DNA of 64,000 nucleotides from Phyllobates terribilis (GCF_046119375.1 NW_027362769.1:234298001-234362000), one strand, 5' to 3'. Positions 30,078 to 44,047 are shown, numbered from the stretch's first letter. Notes: generated from the letters alone by a model not told the origin. Program-made: numbers and translations.

Positions 30078-31214
30078 TGACGCGCCCCCTGGGCCGTGGG
30101 GTACTCGGCAGCCAGGCCTCTGGCTGCTGGTGGATATCACGGTGCTGGCCCAGTCCGTGACCCAGGGCGGTCAGTCAAAAGGGGGAAATACATATAGGGG
30201 ATTTGGGAAAGTTCGTGACGCCTCCTGTGGATTCTGGTAGAGGTTACCAGCGCTGCGACAGTCCACTGAGGCTGATGTTAGGGGCAGCTATGATGGGTCG
30301 GCTCCCCACTGGTGGAGCAGGTCTCAGAGCAGTGTAGAGGTGTAGAAAGATGGTGGAAGCAGGAGAGAGACGGCAGGACGATCCCAGAGGAAATACAGGC
30401 ACACACACAAGGGCAAACTTCAATACCTTTACTGGTGGTGATGCAGGTACGGTCCAGGGCACTCAGGGCGAAGGGTACATTTCTGGACTCTCCCCAGTGA
30501 GCGGGTGTAAGGCCTCCTGATCAGTGTATTTTACTCTCTAAGCTTTGGGCCTGCCTGGAGCTAGGCCTGGCTTGCTTACTGCTTCCTTCTTGTACCTACT
30601 GTCCTGGCGGTAGTGTTTTCTCCTGGTTCCCACTATTCCTGGTCGCTCGAGCCTTAGTGGTACCTAACCCTGTTGCTGTGGTCAGCGGTTGGTTAACCTG
30701 GGACTTGTAGTTCTCCAGGGATTCCGGTTGTTCCTACTGGTCATAAAGATCCCTGTAGGCGCGGACCCGGTGTCCGGTATATGTTTCGGGGTGAGCCTGT
30801 TATGCTCCTCTGCCCCCTATGCGTTTCTCCTTCTTCACCTCAGTCTGCAGACTCTCTCATGCAGACTCCCTAAGCAGACTCTCTGAGTTCTGTCCCTGTC
30901 TGTTCCTGACAGGAACTCTCACTTGCCTTCTAGCCCGCTCCAGGCTCTCACTGGCCAGACTAGCCCACAGCTTGGGCCTAGCCTGGCCTTCAGCCACACA
31001 GACTTCAGCTTGTCTGGAGCTGCAGCATGGTGTCACACTGTCTGCTTCCCACTGACTGACTTCCTGGACTCCACCCCCCAGTATTTATATACCTGACAGG
31101 GCTCAATCTAGTGGACTTGGGTGGAGGTGTCTGCCTGTATTGAGGCCACTGGGGAGAATTCCATCCATGCACCCCTCTGGGATCTGTGGCACCAGTGCGC
31201 AGCAGGGCGCCACA
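30078..31214 (-). mobile_element. Solo LTR (1137 bp) of a related family
   Basis: On the minus strand it starts TGTGGCGCCCTG and ends GGCCCAGGGGGCGCGTCA, identical to the last 18 nt of the intact LTRs. U5 blocks are shared (tttgac...ccctggg.cacggac). GATA flanks both sides (30074-30077, 31215-31218). Confidence 0.9.
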
Positions 31215-36844: not shown

Positions 36845-37152
36845 TAGTGATGAGCGTAAGTGCTCGTTACTTGAGTTTGCATCGGGTGCTCGGGTATGCA
36901 CCGAGTATCACGGGTGTTCGAGTGACATGTTCGAGTCCTCGCGGCCTCAAGTTTCGTGTCTGTTAGTCAAGCACAAAACATACGGGGATTGCCTGTGTTT
37001 GCCAGGCAATCCCGCATGTTTTTTGGCTGCCTAATAGGCACGAAACATGAGGCTGCGAGGACTCAAACATGTCACTCGAACACTCGTGATACTCGGTGCA
37101 TACCCGAGCACCCGATGCAAAATCGAGTAACGAGTACTTGCACTCATCCCTG
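36845..37152. mobile_element. Palindromic hAT (Ac-like TIR) MITE
   Basis: Ends TAGTGATGAG...CTCATCCCTG, TSD tctgtgac/tctgtgat (7/8), whole element self-complementary. Confidence 0.85.
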
Positions 37153-37547
37153 TCTGTGATGTGTCTTTAGACAGCTTTGTATTAGTAAAAGACCATAAAA
37201 AATAGCAGTGAATATAAAGGTCCATATCTTTGCAACCGCATAGCAGATTTAAAAAAAAAATGGAATTCTCAAGGGAACAGCAAAAACTGTACACTTTTGA
37301 CCTAGTGTCAGGTCCTCTTTAAACAACCATGACTCCAGGTATAATCTGGAAATACTAATATCCATATGTCAAAGGAGAATTTTTATTTCTTAAAAACCTG
37401 AAAATTATGTGATATGTAACAAAAAAAGTGCTTACCGTCTATTTTGTGTTGTTCGCAAAGCAGCAATAGGTTCCATAGTGCTTTACAGAGATTATTTCCG
37501 TTCATTTTCCATAGTGGTTCTCCCCAGCTAATCCCTTTGAAATGATA

Positions 37548-38769
37548 TGTAGCACCCTGAGGATTCGGCTGCTACAGGGGTATTACACCTCAAGCCAGAG
37601 GTGTGGTATTCCACTCCCAGGTAAGGATGGAGTGTGGAACTGAGCTTAGTAGGCTGCATGCACTACATACATCCCATTTCCGGGGGACAGAACAACGGTA
37701 CTCCCACCAGTATATGTGCAGGTACGACAGCGTCTGTCCCTGGCTGGAGTGGGAGGGGGGTGGAACATCCCAGTAGTGTAGGGGCAGATAGGGGGTGTAG
37801 TCTGGGTAAAGCTAGGAGCCCATTGGGTGCTGGTCACCTGGGCTCACACATAGAGGGAGTATATAAGGTGGGCACCATCTTAGAATAGGGTCTTTGGTTC
37901 AGTTCAGGCAGGAGGAGAAGAGCAGAGGAGCTCAGCCAGGAGGGCTGACAGGGAGCTGTGGCTCCGGCTGGGCCCAGCTCCAGAACAGAGCCTGCTGAGA
38001 GAGAGAGAGAGAGGAGTAAGAAGGACCCAGAGAGGAAACAAGAAGAGAACCCCAAGATCCCAGAATAAGGACAGAAGGGTGAAGGGTTGGCGGACACGGG
38101 TACCGGAACCCAAGCTGGCAGAGGCAGAAGTAACCCTTAGCCAGGAACCAGAGGTCGTGGTCAAGATTTGCCACGACCCTCACCAAATCCACCAGAAAGG
38201 CACACCAAGCATAGGGTCAGGGAACCCAGAGGAGGTTTGACCACCAAGAGACCCGAGGGAGCCGGCCAAAGGTGGATCCCTGGTGGGAACGGCCAGGAGG
38301 AAGAGAGAGACAGGGAAGCTCAGGACCACGCTCCGGACTGCCTGGGGGTTGGCCGAGTCCAGGACCTGGTGGACGCAGCACGGCTCGGGTGGTCACTCAA
38401 GGCCAGAGTGACTAAAGCAACATCAGTGAGTAAAAACCCTGAAACTGCATCTCCTGACTCTGCCTCTCCTTCCTGCATCATCACAACCCCCATCATCCAC
38501 ACCTGCTGCCCTGAGGCCATACCCCTCCCGTTGGGGGTTATACCATCACTGCTGCACATATACCACCGGCCTCAGCGGACTGCTCTGCAGCGGCGGCTTC
38601 AAAGCCGCACTCAACGGGTGGCGTAGTCGACACTTAACAACATCTACAAAGACTGCCACACACTTAGTTTGACACCCTGGGCACGGACCGGGTCACCACC
38701 ACAAGGACTACTACCCCCATACAGATCCGGCTCCGGGTATCCCCTGAACATGGCCCAGGGGGCGCGTCA
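37548..38769 (+). repeat. 5' LTR (1222 bp)
   Basis: TG...CA ends, TATATAA at 37860-37866, AGTAAA at 38429-38434. By eye it differs from the 3' LTR by 5 transitions and a 4-bp (GA)n length difference. Confidence 0.95.
37860..37866 (+). promoter_or_regulatory. TATA box of the LTR promoter
   Basis: TATATAA ~310 nt into the LTR, present in both LTRs. The related solo LTR has TATATAAA on the minus strand near 31084-31091. Confidence 0.6.
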
Positions 38770-38774
38770 ACTTT

Positions 38775-38792
38775 TGGCGTAGTCGGCAGGAT
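38775..38792 (+). other. Primer-binding site complementary to the tRNA-Ser 3' end
   Basis: TGGCGTAGTCGGCAGGAT is the reverse complement of ATCCTGCCGACTACG-CCA, the 3' end of the vertebrate GTAGTCG-type tRNA-Ser (AGA/TGA). It lies 5 nt downstream of the LTR end. Confidence 0.9.
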
Positions 38793-39026
38793 AACGTGCC
38801 CGCAACCACCGGGTACTGCGTGCCTGAAGAAAAGTTCATATTTACCGTAAAAAGAAGTCTCCCGCCAATTCCGGAGGGTCCCCGCCATCGGACGCCATCT
38901 CGGATCGGTTCCCGCCGTTTGCCCGCCATCTGCAGTCTTTTCCCGCCATCCACAGAGTTTCCCGCCATTGGGAAGCGGTTCCCGCCATCTGAGAAGATTT
39001 CCCGCCTTGGCAGAGCAGACGCCATT

Positions 39027-40703
39027 ATGGGCGTGCCAGAGGGTGGCAAGAGGCCACCTCCCATCGTGGGCCAGGACCAAGAATGGCGCCAAAAACGGAG
39101 ACCGCCCCCACCAGTAGAGACTGTGATGCTTGAGATGTCCATCAGCGTGGGGGGTCTGCCCCTGGAACTGACAATCACCAAGTTGCCCCAGGACCGCCCT
39201 CAATGGGGGCGGAGAGAGAACAAAAGAGAGAAGATGGGAGCAGCTTGGAGGAGTCTGGAGGAGTCGTACCCGGAGATGGAGGGGGAGGCAGGCAGCACCG
39301 ACCCAGCGGTCAGGAGCCTGTTGCAAGCGACAACCCCACAAGGCCTGGTGGAGATCCTGGCGCAGCTCCCCAGAGATCGGGAGCATGCACGGACCACACT
39401 GGAGGGCTTGGCTCAGAGGATGGCCCGAGTGCAGCGAGACGTACTGGCCACATGGAGCAGAGATATGGCCCTGCAGGCAGGAACCCGCCAACGGAGCACG
39501 CCACCCGAGACGAGGAGTCAGACCGCCTCTGAGGATGGCGCAGGAGGAATCAAGGCCGGAGACGACGCCGAGGAAGGAGCTAAAGAAACGGAGGCAGGTA
39601 AAGGGGACGTCACTACCCCGAGCCGAGAAGCCGTGAGCCTGCCCCAGCTCCCCGTCGCAGAGCCCGAAATTTCCCCTGCCGTGCCCGTCGTTGCACCGTC
39701 ACCGCTCCCGACTAGGCCTCAAACAGAAGCCGCGGCCACGCCCCCTGTGACGTCACGCGCCTCAACCCTGAGCGCGGCCACGCGGGAGACGCCACCGGCC
39801 TGGTCGCAAGGCCGAGTACCCCCGGGCGCCGCAGTACCAACAGCGCCCTCTACCTCTGCCGAGCCACCGGCCTGGTCGCTGGGCCAAGTAACCCCGGGCG
39901 CCGCCGTTTTCACGGTGCCCTTTACATTCAGGGTGCCCCAAGCCTGGTCGCAAGGCCTGGTAAACCCGGGCGCCGCTACCACCACCGCGCCCTCAACTTC
40001 CACTGTGCCACACCTGGGTGAGGACTTGTTTGCCCAGCACACTTGCCCGGATGGGCAGCCCTTTGTGTGGCCACCGGAGTACCACCATCCCCGACTCCGG
40101 AAAGAAAGACCCCTGGATGAGCCCCTGATCCCGGCTCCGGCGCCCGCCAAGATCACCCCACTCTCGTTGGAGGAAGCGCAGTTTGCGTGGGACCCCACTG
40201 GAGGAGACCTCATAGGGTTCACTCAAGAGACCCGGGCGGCCGCAGCTCAGCGAGCAGAGTGCTGCCGGCAGCAGTTAGAGGTCTTTGACAGAGAAAGGAG
40301 AGAGAGGCGGGTCCGTGAGCAGCGGCTGCAAATAAAAAGTGCAGAGCAGAAAAGCCGGACCCGAAGGAACCCCCGTGCAGCCCACGGTCCCCGTGCCACC
40401 GGGACTGTAATAAAATTCCAAATGGAGCACGGGTGGGGTTTTATACGGGACCACAGAACCCCCGGCGACGTCTTTGTCACCCGCAGAGACGTAGAAAGCC
40501 ATCTGCCGGAGGGACACAGAGGTCGTGACCTTTACCTGGGAGATGAGGTCACCTTCACCCGGCACCAGTGTGCCAAAGGACCCTATGCCCTTCATGTACA
40601 TCGCCTGACTGAGGAGGAGATGCGGTGTGAGGAAGGTCAAGAGGACCCGGACGGGTCTGAAGCCTACCCTCAGGAAGGAGCAGGAGGGCATCGTCACCAT
40701 TAA
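39027..40703 (+). CDS. LTR-element protein, 558 aa: low-complexity Pro/Ala/Thr region, three 24-aa repeats, predicted coiled coil, C-terminal cold-shock domain
   Basis: The frame is open from 38796 (GTG in the ORF track, 635 aa). The first ATG at 39027 is in strong Kozak context (gccattATGG). The C-terminus GTVIKFQMEHGWGFIR...GDVFVTRRDV...LYLGDEVTF...KGPYALHV fits the CSD pattern, with RNP1-like HGWGFI and RNP2-like VFVT. Confidence 0.85.
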   Translation: MGVPEGGKRPPPIVGQDQEWRQKRRPPPPVETVMLEMSISVGGLPLELTITKLPQDRPQWGRRENKREKMGAAWRSLEESYPEMEGEAGSTDPAVRSLLQATTPQGLVEILAQLPRDREHARTTLEGLAQRMARVQRDVLATWSRDMALQAGTRQRSTPPETRSQTASEDGAGGIKAGDDAEEGAKETEAGKGDVTTPSREAVSLPQLPVAEPEISPAVPVVAPSPLPTRPQTEAAATPPVTSRASTLSAATRETPPAWSQGRVPPGAAVPTAPSTSAEPPAWSLGQVTPGAAVFTVPFTFRVPQAWSQGLVNPGAATTTAPSTSTVPHLGEDLFAQHTCPDGQPFVWPPEYHHPRLRKERPLDEPLIPAPAPAKITPLSLEEAQFAWDPTGGDLIGFTQETRAAAAQRAECCRQQLEVFDRERRERRVREQRLQIKSAEQKSRTRRNPRAAHGPRATGTVIKFQMEHGWGFIRDHRTPGDVFVTRRDVESHLPEGHRGRDLYLGDEVTFTRHQCAKGPYALHVHRLTEEEMRCEEGQEDPDGSEAYPQEGAGGHRHH

Positions 40704-41154
40704 GAGGTGAACTGAAACTGTAAAATAGTTACCCGTAAGGGTATATGCCATGCTGCTAATTTAAATATGTTCCCCCGTTGGGACAAGTGTGAACTGTTCC
40801 AGTGTGTCCCATCTCCCCACAGGCTGAGGACTGTGAACAGCCATTCCTGTTCCCCACTGGCCGAGGACTGAGAGCGGCCACCTCCCTTTGTATATAGTTG
40901 CGCTTTCTAAGGCGCCCCCTACTGGTTTTATAGGAAACTGTGTTTTTTTCAGAAGAGACTGTTGCACTTTACCCGGTCACAATTTGCACCGTGGCCGGAG
41001 GAACAAGAATGTTTACTATGAAAAGTTTTATATGAAAAGTTTTATGCTGATGATATATATAATGTTTTATATGTTTATGATGTTTTTGAAAAAAATTTGT
41101 ATGTTTGTGGATGTTTTTATTCTTTTACAGCCCGAGGACGTGCTGTGATTTACC

Positions 41155-41163
41155 AGGGGGGAA
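41155..41163 (+). other. Polypurine tract
   Basis: AGGGGGGAA directly abuts the TGT start of the 3' LTR. Confidence 0.85.
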
Positions 41164-42389
41164 TGTAGCACCCTGAGGATTCGGCTGCTACAGGGGTATT
41201 ACACCTCAAGCCAGAGGTGTGGTATTCCACTCCCGGGTAAGGATGGAGTGTGGAACTGAGCTTAGTAGGCTGCATGCACTACATACATCCCATTTCCGGG
41301 GGACAGAACAACGGTACTCCCACCAGTATATGTGCAGGTACGACAGCGTCTGTCCCTGGCTGGAGTGGGAGGGGGGTGGAACATCCCAGTAGTGTAGGGG
41401 CAGATAGGGGGTGTAGTCTGGGTAAAGCTAGGAGCCCATTGGGTGCTGGTCACCTGGGCTCACACATAGAGGGAGTATATAAGGTGGGCACCATCTTAGA
41501 ATAGGGTCTTTGGTTCAGTTCAGGCAGGAGGAGAAGAGCAGAGGAGCTCAGCCAGGAGGGCTGACAGGGAGCTGTGGCTCCGGCTGGGCCCAGCTCCAGA
41601 ACAGAGCCTGCTAAGAGAGAGAGAGAGAGAGAGGAGTAAGAAGGACCCAGAGAGGAAACAAGAAGAGAACCCCAAGATCCCAGAATAAGGACAGAAGGGT
41701 GAAGGGTTGGCGGACACGGGTACCGGAACCCAAGCTGGCAGAGGCAGAAGTAACCCTTAGCCAGGAACCGGAGGTCGTGGTCAAGATTTGCCACGACCCT
41801 CACCAAATCCACCAGAAAGGCACACCAAGCATAGGGTCAGGGAACCCAGAGGAGGTTTGACCACCAAGAGACCCAAGGGAGCCGGCCAAAGGTGGATCCC
41901 TGGTGGGAACGGCCAGGAGGAAGAGAGAGACAGGGAAGCTCAGGACCACGCTCCGGACTGCCTGGGGGTTGGCCGAGTCCAGGACCTGGTGGACGCAGCA
42001 CGGCTCGGGTGGTCACTCAAGGCCAGAGTGACTAAAGCAACATCAGTGAGTAAAAACCCTGAAACTGCATCTCCTGACTCTGCCTCTCCTTCCTGCATCA
42101 TCACAACCCCCATCATCCACACCTGCTGCCCTGAGGCCATACCCCTCCCGTTGGGGGTTATACCATCACTGCTGCACATATACCACCGGCCTCAGCGGAC
42201 TGCTCTGCAGCGGCGGCTTCAAAGCCGCACTCAACGGGTGGCGTAGTCGACACTTAACAACATCTACAAAGACTGCCACACACTTAGTTTGACACCCTGG
42301 GCACGGACCGGGTCACCGCCACAAGGACTACTACCCCCATACAGATCCGGCTCCGGGTATCCCCTGAACATGGCCCAGGGGGCGCGTCA
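41164..42389 (+). repeat. 3' LTR (1226 bp)
   Basis: Near-identical copy of the 5' LTR, preceded by the PPT and followed by the GATA TSD. TATATAA at 41476-41482. Confidence 0.95.
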
Positions 42390-43075
42390 GATACATACAG
42401 TAGAAGTAGTTTCATAAAAAAGACAATTCATCTCTGTATGATTTTGAGAAAAAAAACTTATGCGAAGGGAGAACATAAAATCTCCATTCAACCTTTGCCC
42501 CCAACTACTGCAAGGCAGAAGTGTTAACCACTGAGCTTTGGCTAGATACGACTAAGAGGGTCTGAGCAGAACAACTGAGATCACCATATTACATGTGCAC
42601 TGTGAGCATAATCATTAGGTAATTTTGTATTTTTGATGATTCATTTTATTATTGAACAACTACTGTGCTGTTGGTCAATCCAAAATGATAATGAAACCTG
42701 AACATATAAGAAATTAAAAGTGAGGTTTCGTCTTTTTTAGGATTTTAGGAGTGTGCAGAATTATTGGGCAACTATTATTGTGCAGAATTATTATGTAATT
42801 AAATTAAAAATGTAATTTTTTCCATTTCAATTGTATATTTTCATCTGTTAAAGTGAGCATAATAACCAAAAAACTCCATGTGCAAAAATACATTTCTGAC
42901 ATTCCAAAAAAATATCAGTGACCAATATAGCCGCCCTTGTTTTCACCAACAGTGATAAGCGCCATCCAGCGAGTCTGTCAGTTTTCCTAATCTGTTGATG
43001 ATCAACTTTTGTAGACAGCACCAACTACAACCTCCCAGACACTATTCAGAGAGGTGACTGTTTTCCTTCACAATG

Positions 43076-44047
43076 GGGCTATGTGCCCACGATGCAGATT
43101 TGAAGCAGAAATTTCCTGCGCATTTCTGCATCTCCTTGGCAGAAAAAATGCATGCGGATTTTACATGTGTTTTTTTCATCGTTTTTACATGCGTTTATGC
43201 ATGCGTTTTTTTCAAGCGGTTTTCCAAGTGATTTTGAGCATCACTTGGAAAAGGGCTTGACAAGTTGGTCACACAATATAAATCCATGCAACTGGCATTG
43301 ATTTATATTGTGTGACCAACTTATGAGGAGATTTCTGTTTCAAATCTTGCATCAAGTGTAAATAAAAAGAATTAAAAAGTAAAAAGAAAAAAAAAAACTT
43401 ATGCTCACCTCTTCGGCGGCCCCTGGTCTCCTCCCGGCGGCGATCCTCTCTCCTCGGCGGCCCGCGGTGTACTGGCAGGACCTGAAGTGACGTCATTTAG
43501 TCAGCTGATGGTCACGTGACCGCTGACGTCAGCGATCAGGTGGTGGTCACCTGACCATCAGCTGACTAAATGACATCACCGCAGGTCCTGCCAGTACACC
43601 GCGGGCCGCCGAGGAGAGAGGACGCCAAAGGAGGAAACCAGGGGCTGCTGGAGAAGAGAGTATGAATATTTTTTTTTATTTTTTACTTTTTAATTATTTT
43701 TTAATTTGCCGGTACTATGGTACCCGGCTCGCATGAGAGTCTCCTCTTCTCCCAACCCGGGTACCATCCACACATTGAACCGCACAATACAGGTATACAT
43801 GCGGATGTTATGCGGTTCAATGCAAGTCAATGGGCGCAATTTTGCCGCGAAATCGCGCCCAAATTGGTCGTGCTGCGGATTTTTTCGCAATGATAATCCG
43901 CAGCGGAAATTTCCGCAGCATGTGCACAGCACATGCGGATTATCATTGGGAAACATGGCAGACATCTTAACAAGCAATTTTAATGCGTTTCTGCGGCGTA
44001 AATGCCGCCATTGAAACGCATTACATCTGCATCGTGGGCCCACATCC
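43076..44047. mobile_element. Harbinger-like non-autonomous element with a GC-rich central palindrome, nested in the Tc1 element
   Basis: Ends ggctatgtgcccacgatgcagat / atctgcatcgtgggcccacatcc, with ~70-bp near-perfect inverted arms at 43445-43621. Confidence 0.7.

Follow-up and report, generated by a model that had tools for sequence, protein, structure and literature searches.

The window analysed here, a stretch of 64,000 nucleotides from the poison frog Phyllobates terribilis (GCF_046119375.1, NW_027362769.1:234298001-234362000), contains at 37548-42389, on the plus strand like all features of the element described below, a whole copy of a long terminal repeat (LTR) retrotransposon whose single gene encodes a protein ending in a cold-shock domain (CSD). 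The copy is made up of a 5′ LTR of 1222 bp (37548-38769), a primer-binding site (PBS; 38775-38792), one open reading frame (ORF) of 558 aa (39027-40703), a polypurine tract (PPT; 41155-41163) and a 3′ LTR of 1226 bp (41164-42389), and is flanked by the target-site duplication (TSD) GATA (37544-37547 and 42390-42393). Both LTRs are bounded by TG...CA and are about 99% alike, with four substitutions and one 4-nt indel between them. The PBS is of the tRNA-Ser(AGA/TGA) type and matches 15 nt plus CCA at the 3′ end of three host genes (tRNA-Ser genes were present in 4 of 24 loci scanned, and three of the four were compared; the first four loci matching the tRNA pattern are elements and no tRNA genes). 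The layout of an autonomous Ty3/Gypsy element, with gag followed by pol (protease, reverse transcriptase (RT), RNase H, integrase), was not found, and Pfam recognises only the CSD. The 558-aa protein is free of CCHC, D[ST]G and YxDD motifs; one YADD, in another reading frame of the interior and outside the ORF frame, is taken as chance. A preliminary description of the element had noted intact LTRs, TSD, PBS and PPT around one uninterrupted ORF ending in a CSD, and no zinc knuckle, protease, RT, RNase H or integrase motif; the coordinates, the Pfam assignment of residues 458-525 and the scans of the protein bear this out.

A pol-bearing partner, which the preliminary description had proposed to look for, was found, with an identical PBS and a related U5 (the last part of the LTR). 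This Ty3/Gypsy family, called the helper below, is represented by a copy (L035) of about 7.9 kb with LTRs of about 970 bp, a gag frame of 351 codons with a CCHC knuckle (Pfam PNMA/Retrotrans_gag and zf-CCHC) and a pol frame of 1402 codons in the order protease, RT, RNase H and integrase (Pfam RVT_1, RT_RNaseH, rve and Integrase_H2C2, the protease by its DTG motif). Helper gag, RT and integrase have no tblastn match anywhere in the window. With its LTRs, TSD, PBS and PPT, no RT, and an autonomous partner with common cis signals, the window element belongs to the non-autonomous LTR retrotransposons.

The protein and its cold-shock domain

The match to the CSD family (PF00313; residues 458-525, 40398-40601) scores 33.1 bits against a curated cut-off of 27 (E 5e-8) and is the sole one detected in the protein. 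In the AlphaFold model this region forms a confident five-strand barrel of the oligonucleotide/oligosaccharide-binding type, preceded by a 44-residue basic helix (residues 403-446, 40233-40364; net charge +8); the preliminary description had noted a charged helical stretch ahead of the CSD. There is a weaker helical patch at residues 93-153 (39303-39485), and the model is disordered elsewhere. The CSD stands at the C-terminus and is followed by a 30-residue acidic tail. The Foldseek matches listed are all cold-shock domains or complexes containing one, and the modelled domain superposes on CspA with a TM score of 0.87 (root-mean-square deviation 2.1 over 72 columns) and on YBX1/YBX2 with 0.77. 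The RNP1 aromatic residues and the RNP2 Phe are retained in the window CSD, and the His is replaced. The checks of profile and fold that had been proposed earlier for this protein came out in favour of a CSD.

The N-terminal part has no Pfam family at E < 0.1 and no PDB sequence match below E 0.039, and its models are of low confidence (mean pLDDT 54), with two short helices and one long one whose fold matches are only generic long helices (Z up to 5.4). Pfam finds no Gag family in the whole protein or in 13 N-terminal family members, and an hhalign comparison with helper Gag reveals no similarity (probability 0.1-0.2%). A disordered linker rich in Pro, Ala, Thr and Ser contains three 72-nt repeats (39791-40011). 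The best ESM Atlas features score 0.85, a lead only.

The ORF is unevenly constrained. Codon models were fitted to 20 CSD-type copies, leaving out near-duplicates, copies lacking the CSD and saturated distant copies, and gave a ratio of nonsynonymous to synonymous substitution (omega) of 0.46 for residues 1-150, 0.68 for residues 151-325 (the linker), 0.23 for residues 326-395, 0.12 for the basic helix and 0.065 for the CSD (2dlnL 473 against omega = 1). For the helper, omega is 0.20 in gag (18 copies), 0.087 in RT and 0.094 in integrase (19 copies each). The CSD is under purifying selection comparable to that on helper RT, and its variable columns fall on codon positions 1, 2 and 3 in the proportion 37/25/67. 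The comparison across copies suggested in the preliminary description thus indicates that the domain is kept by selection; the outcomes it had named as fatal to its reading, a misfit to the CSD profile or an ORF broken in most copies with dN/dS near 1, did not occur. A large retrotransposon derivative (LARD) has a long interior without a selected coding sequence; the window element, with an ORF under purifying selection, does not have such an interior. CSD alleles are exchanged between otherwise near-identical copies: over the CSD stretch, the identity of L003 and L004 to the window element is 86%, against 91-100% elsewhere.

Transcription would start near 37901, as predicted from a TATA box (37860-37866) and an initiator-like TCAGTT (37899-37904; of 17 CSD-type elements listed, 15 have their TATA at the matching offset). 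The leader from this start is 1126 nt long and contains one ATG against 10.3 expected, and none of 1000 shuffles gave so low a count; ATG depletion is seen in all 15 CSD-type and all 13 helper leaders. Five spaced direct repeats of the CCCGCCAT type (repeat family D4) lie in the leader at 38863-39011. An ATG at 38750, 24 nt ahead of the PBS, shares the frame of the ORF in 9 of the 15 copies sampled and extends it to as much as about 700 aa, so that the protein may begin in U5 and be read through the PBS; in the window copy, this ATG opens only 10 codons.

By profile score, the CSD most resembles those of Y-box proteins. Against the PDB, the family profile places Y-box proteins first (48.9 bits), followed by CspA (41.3), LIN28 (25.3), CARHSP1 (20.7) and CSDE1 (19.9), and a second profile aligns with YBX1 at 54.9 bits, gap-free over 68 columns. 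The likeness to YBX1/YBX2 (FRGY2) includes a longer loop lacking in bacterial Csps; identity is about 30%, two RNA-contact residues of Y-box proteins are replaced (see below), and the domain lies C-terminally behind a new helix. In Y-box proteins the CSD is nearly invariant and leads into a long basic/acidic tail, which is absent from the element protein with its short acidic one. Two host Y-box genes have introns within the CSD, whereas the CSD of the element is intronless, and this fits capture from an mRNA by template switching. Papers are cited here by PMC number and from extracts of each; in those of one, LTR elements are described as capturing host mRNA through template switching and then moving non-autonomously (PMC5131818). 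The CSD is probably an ancient capture, with a host Y-box mRNA as the donor suggested by the profile scores.

Abundance, shared signals and derivatives

The PBS 18-mer occurs 69,769 times in genome G000 (10.6 Gb), and its reversed control not at all. A 17-mer marking the 3′ end of the CSD-type interior has 26,331 exact occurrences, corresponding to at least that number of copies, as expected from the earlier suggestion of a mobilised non-autonomous family; the helper 3′ marker, with up to one mismatch allowed, has 32,421. Forty of the first 41 PBS sites on C1 were sampled (one was skipped), of which 19 belong to CSD-type elements, 20 to Gypsy gag-pol elements, one to neither and none to both; a helper encoding a CSD was not found among the 20. 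Elements of both types have 4-bp TSDs, and both types are recent, since the median LTR-LTR identity is 99.6% for 16 CSD-type elements and 99.1% for 17 helpers.

Compared with four helpers, the window element shows likeness only over 38486-38971 (69-77%), a segment with U5, the PBS and the start of the leader that presumably holds packaging and priming signals. When the final 270 nt of the LTRs (U5) are placed in a tree, CSD-type elements and helpers are interleaved, with at least four changes of type over well-supported branches and none of 200 bootstraps separating the two types; the leader tree requires at least two such changes. Template switching between co-packaged RNAs is established for retroelements and leads to repeated exchange of U5. 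The repeated swapping seen here fits a helper and a satellite whose RNAs would be packaged together.

The CSD type also has a motif of its own. A splice-donor-like GTGAGT overlaps a poly(A)-signal-like AGTAAA at 38426-38434, with a second copy in the 3′ LTR, and the combined GTRAGTAAA motif is present in 18 of 19 CSD-type copies and in none of 20 helpers. An acceptor-like pyrimidine tract with CAG lies directly ahead of the PPT (41112-41130), and such a site was recognised by a strict pattern in 15 of 16 CSD-type copies. Splicing from the predicted donor at 38426 to the predicted acceptor at 41130 would remove the PBS and the ORF, and could tune the amount of genomic RNA. In foamy viruses, a donor suppresses 5′ polyadenylation, and the donor of the CSD-type elements might, by analogy, do the same. 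Contigs of four runs cover all 30 bins, although contigs give no evidence of transcription; among the 15 of 31 joints listed, none lies at the predicted donor or acceptor.

Among the 19 sampled CSD-type copies, eight keep the frame from start to stop and four are without most or all of the CSD; in the rest, the frame is disrupted by stop codons or frameshifts, by loss of the start or by an insertion. Two in-frame deletions removing the helix and the CSD have junctions at 131 and 31 places in the genome. The flanks differ among three copies of the first deletion; many copies of the second sit on unplaced contigs, perhaps as products of segmental duplication. As copies with these deletions still spread, the CSD is not required in cis. 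In L033 and L050, which carry the two amplified deletions, the reading frame is kept to the normal stop (401 and 385 aa), and translation to the end of the frame may matter in cis in these two cases. An even spacing of matches at 3.1-3.6 kb was seen at G000:C4:695074784-695082440, C1:582554088-582561363 and C1:705427067-705436513, which suggests head-to-tail arrays with common LTRs in lineage A, lineage C (see below) and a deletion derivative. On unplaced contigs (C172, C234, C245, C401 and others), dozens of matches score identically and in many cases lie hundreds of kb from one another, which may reflect a single copy within a large repeated unit.

Related lineages in frogs and neighbouring repeats

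Searches with distant homologues brought out further pol-less lineages. Lineage B (L091, L094 and L096) has LTR pairs that are 93-97% alike, a CSD about 58-64% alike and, in two of the three loci, another PBS. The window itself has a solo LTR of 1137 bp on the minus strand at 30078-31214 (TGTGGCGCC...GCGTCA), with the same TSD, GATA, as the main element, and about 71% alike to the LTRs of lineage B loci. Lineage C combines 1-kb LTRs of unrelated sequence with the PBS of the window element, open frames of up to about 820 codons and a CSD about 37% alike. The LTR/PBS junction of this lineage was counted 569 times; the first 20 of these loci all have at least part of the ORF, and no gag or RT was found in them. 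The CSD of lineage C has an omega of 0.15 (15 of the first 20 loci), and the donor-like/poly(A) pattern of the window lineage was not found in this lineage. A shorter form of the lineage C junction occurs 2,017 times, and three of five such loci outside lineage C match gag at about 25% identity, which suggests that lineage C has another helper family. Another Gypsy family that has this PBS (L161-L165), whose gag frame apparently begins at the last bases of the PBS, is a candidate for this role. Two further diverged CSD copies (L079 and L081) have no LTR pair within 10 kb, so that not all CSD copies have a demonstrated LTR setting. Judged by their sequences, pol-less CSD elements are a class with several lineages, extending beyond one family.

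A CSD tree of 42 rows and 74 columns, in which Y-box rows were not included, has two supported frog clades. The first unites the window lineage with proteins labelled Ranitomeya and Anomaloglossus, the second lineage C with Bufo proteins named 'Y-box-binding protein 2-A-like' and an unnamed Logan protein. Their joint branch (93/82) includes one outgroup, and a single origin of the two clades is unproven for that reason. The annotations of other dendrobatids and of Bufo include similar proteins, the closest proteins carrying these labels, and some gene calls, such as those of Bufo, are probably ORFs of elements. Four proteins (P0002, P0003, P0157 and P0159) were excluded as independent evidence of range, P0002 being nearly identical to the ORF of L036; a third protein search, limited to lengths of 563-2000, gave two matches and covers the range beyond frogs poorly. 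Some public gene models (P0003, P0155, P0157, P0158 and P0159) join a CSD to unrelated host domains, such as R3H, astacin/CUB, trypsin and others; they are probably mis-joined element exons and possibly real chimeras.

Other repeats were noted in passing. Long inverted repeats near the element (36846-37151 and 43096-43953) have 141-nt arms that are 88% alike and nested 78-nt arms that are 95% alike, and are probably small non-autonomous DNA transposons. In L118, around position 1500, an LTR end with its PBS runs straight into a second LTR end in inverted orientation.

A probable satellite with a proposed RNA-binding accessory

On balance, and with modest conviction, we lean towards the view that the window element is a satellite of the autonomous Ty3/Gypsy family and encodes a trans-acting, Y-box-derived accessory that would bind RNA, once expressed, and favour the RNA of the element. 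The satellite RNA, with its helper-type U5, PBS, leader and PPT, would enter helper Gag-Pol particles, where helper Gag-Pol would reverse-transcribe and integrate it; the layout of the cis sequences supports this relation, of which co-packaging is the presumed step. The sole gene would yield a protein that is disordered for most of its length and ends in a basic helix and a CSD; most likely it would be an accessory binder of single-stranded RNA, acting in germ cells on the RNA of the element. In frog oocytes, maternal mRNA is coated and stored by host Y-box proteins; a Y-box-like coating, stabilising and storing of the element RNA, or its shielding from decay and silencing, could allow more of it to be packaged. 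The ova of poison frogs contain abundant Gypsy RNA (PMC6278860). The protein would act largely in trans, because derivatives lacking the CSD are still copied, with enough gain for its own RNA or that of close kin to remain selected. An RNA-binding accessory had been the second option of the preliminary description and seems the best fit; its mobilised non-autonomous family also stands, together with the pol partner and the selected CSD for which it had proposed checks, and its first option, a knuckle-free nucleocapsid, is not supported.

Several observations weigh against this view. The Trp of KWF and the His of VFVH, both Y-box residues, are replaced in the window protein according to the alignments, so affinity or specificity may differ from that of Y-box proteins. 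A single-sequence search put one bacterial Csp above YBX1 and Foldseek put bacterial Csps first, so the closeness to Y-box proteins is unconfirmed by these rankings. A full frame is kept in fewer than half of the sampled copies (8/19), ectopic conversion could equally give a mixed U5, and a partial benefit in cis must be assumed, because cheaters should erode a factor that acts purely in trans.

Other explanations would give the protein a different role. It could act inside the particle, packaged with helper Gag as a nucleocapsid-like chaperone of tRNA annealing, dimerisation or strand transfer on the satellite RNA. CSDs do chaperone single-stranded nucleic acids, and the basic helix adjoins the domain, but the protein has no likeness to helper Gag, which has a CCHC knuckle of its own, and CSD-less derivatives have finished reverse transcription and integration many times; we regard this role as improbable. 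The satellite and the helper might instead form a mutualistic two-part retrotransposon, in which the satellite protein would be a counter-silencing or decoy factor (against host Y-box proteins or piRNA and decay factors) that also boosts the helper, so that both amplify. This is conceivable but rather doubtful: the near 1:1 abundance of the partners, the lack of a CSD in sampled helpers, the exchange of CSD alleles between otherwise near-identical copies (L003 and L004) and a second CSD lineage that has only an LTR end and PBS in common with a different Gypsy family are in its favour, yet a plain packaging parasite could also reach 1:1, and omega is low across the entire CSD.

The benefit might also lie with the frog, the protein being retained, for example, for RNA binding in the germ line, provided by young copies at dispersed sites. 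A precedent is BHIKHARI Gag in zebrafish, a needed protein supplied by young, dispersed pol-less elements in the extracts available (PMC12067270), and predicted genes of the CSD family are annotated in several frog genera; however, selection is seen between transposing subfamilies while inserted copies freely gain stops and frameshifts, a pattern of selection at the level of the element that makes a host role very unlikely. Passive cargo, a captured gene fragment without function in a LARD-like element, has a parallel in the capture of host mRNA by LTR elements that then move non-autonomously (PMC5131818), but it is contradicted by the low omega in two lineages (0.065 and 0.15), by the codon-position bias of the variable CSD columns and by the ATG-depleted leader, and can hardly be right.

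The satellite described here shares traits with several known systems. In gene-capturing non-autonomous LTR elements and LARDs, host-derived sequence likewise stands in place of gag-pol, the PBS and PPT are kept and movement occurs in trans; in the extracts of these sources, their retrocopies are young and few in number and no selection for a benefit to the element is described (PMC5131818, PMC6431247), whereas here a single domain makes up the only gene, selected at the level of RT, in more than 26,000 copies and two deep lineages. Pol-less elements with LTRs around one long ORF and many copies are reported in Xenopus (1A11, Xretpos and lambda-olt 2-1; PMC4585706), zebrafish (BHIKHARI/crestin) and chicken (ENS-1/ERNI; PMC12067270); according to the extracts, the proteins of 1A11, BHIKHARI and ERNI are Gag or have a capsid fold, unlike that of the window ORF, which shows no Gag similarity in sequence and no CCHC and ends in a CSD. 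Terminal-repeat retrotransposons in miniature are described as non-coding (PMC10886601). The helper resembles Barthez-type Ty3/Gypsy elements, by size and layout only: the extract on Barthez1 gives 7871 bp, LTRs of 1116 bp, a gag of 355 aa and a pol of 1394 aa (PMC11117352), close to the sizes of L035.

A trans-acting accessory outside the transposition core also has a counterpart in plants, where VANC of VANDAL is an anti-silencing DNA-binding protein encoded by a DNA transposon. VANC binds DNA and belongs to DNA transposons, in contrast to an RNA-binding domain on a separate satellite, for which anti-silencing is a conjecture. No published description of a CSD in an LTR element was found in the literature searched, an entry in Repbase, Dfam or supplementary repeat libraries being possible, and 'cold shock' has no occurrence in three poison-frog genome papers from that search. 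In the extracts of one source, 66,046 LTR elements match 'Unknown' repeats (PMC11152451).

As far as their sequences go, these elements are a non-autonomous LTR class with neither gag nor pol, in which an apparently host-derived RNA-binding domain is kept about as tightly as RT. Vertebrate non-autonomous LTR elements described so far are non-coding or keep a Gag, and the CSD class differs from both. By estimate, the satellite amounts to about 126 Mb (26,331 × 4.8 kb) and the helper to about 256 Mb (32,421 × 7.9 kb), together a few per cent of the 10.6-Gb genome. According to one study, genome size in anurans goes along with recent Ty3 activity (PMC12822217), and, as Gypsy RNA is also abundant in ova, the CSD protein is a specific protein to examine for the escape of elements from control. 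A bolder and rather unlikely possibility is an old satellite class in the line of poison frogs and true toads, using various Gypsy helpers, whose captured Y-box mimic would mask element RNA in oocytes or blunt silencing for both partners, forming a two-part retrotransposon that would directly drive genome gigantism. More generally, the satellite-helper arrangement may help to explain how elements multiply in the giant genomes of frogs.

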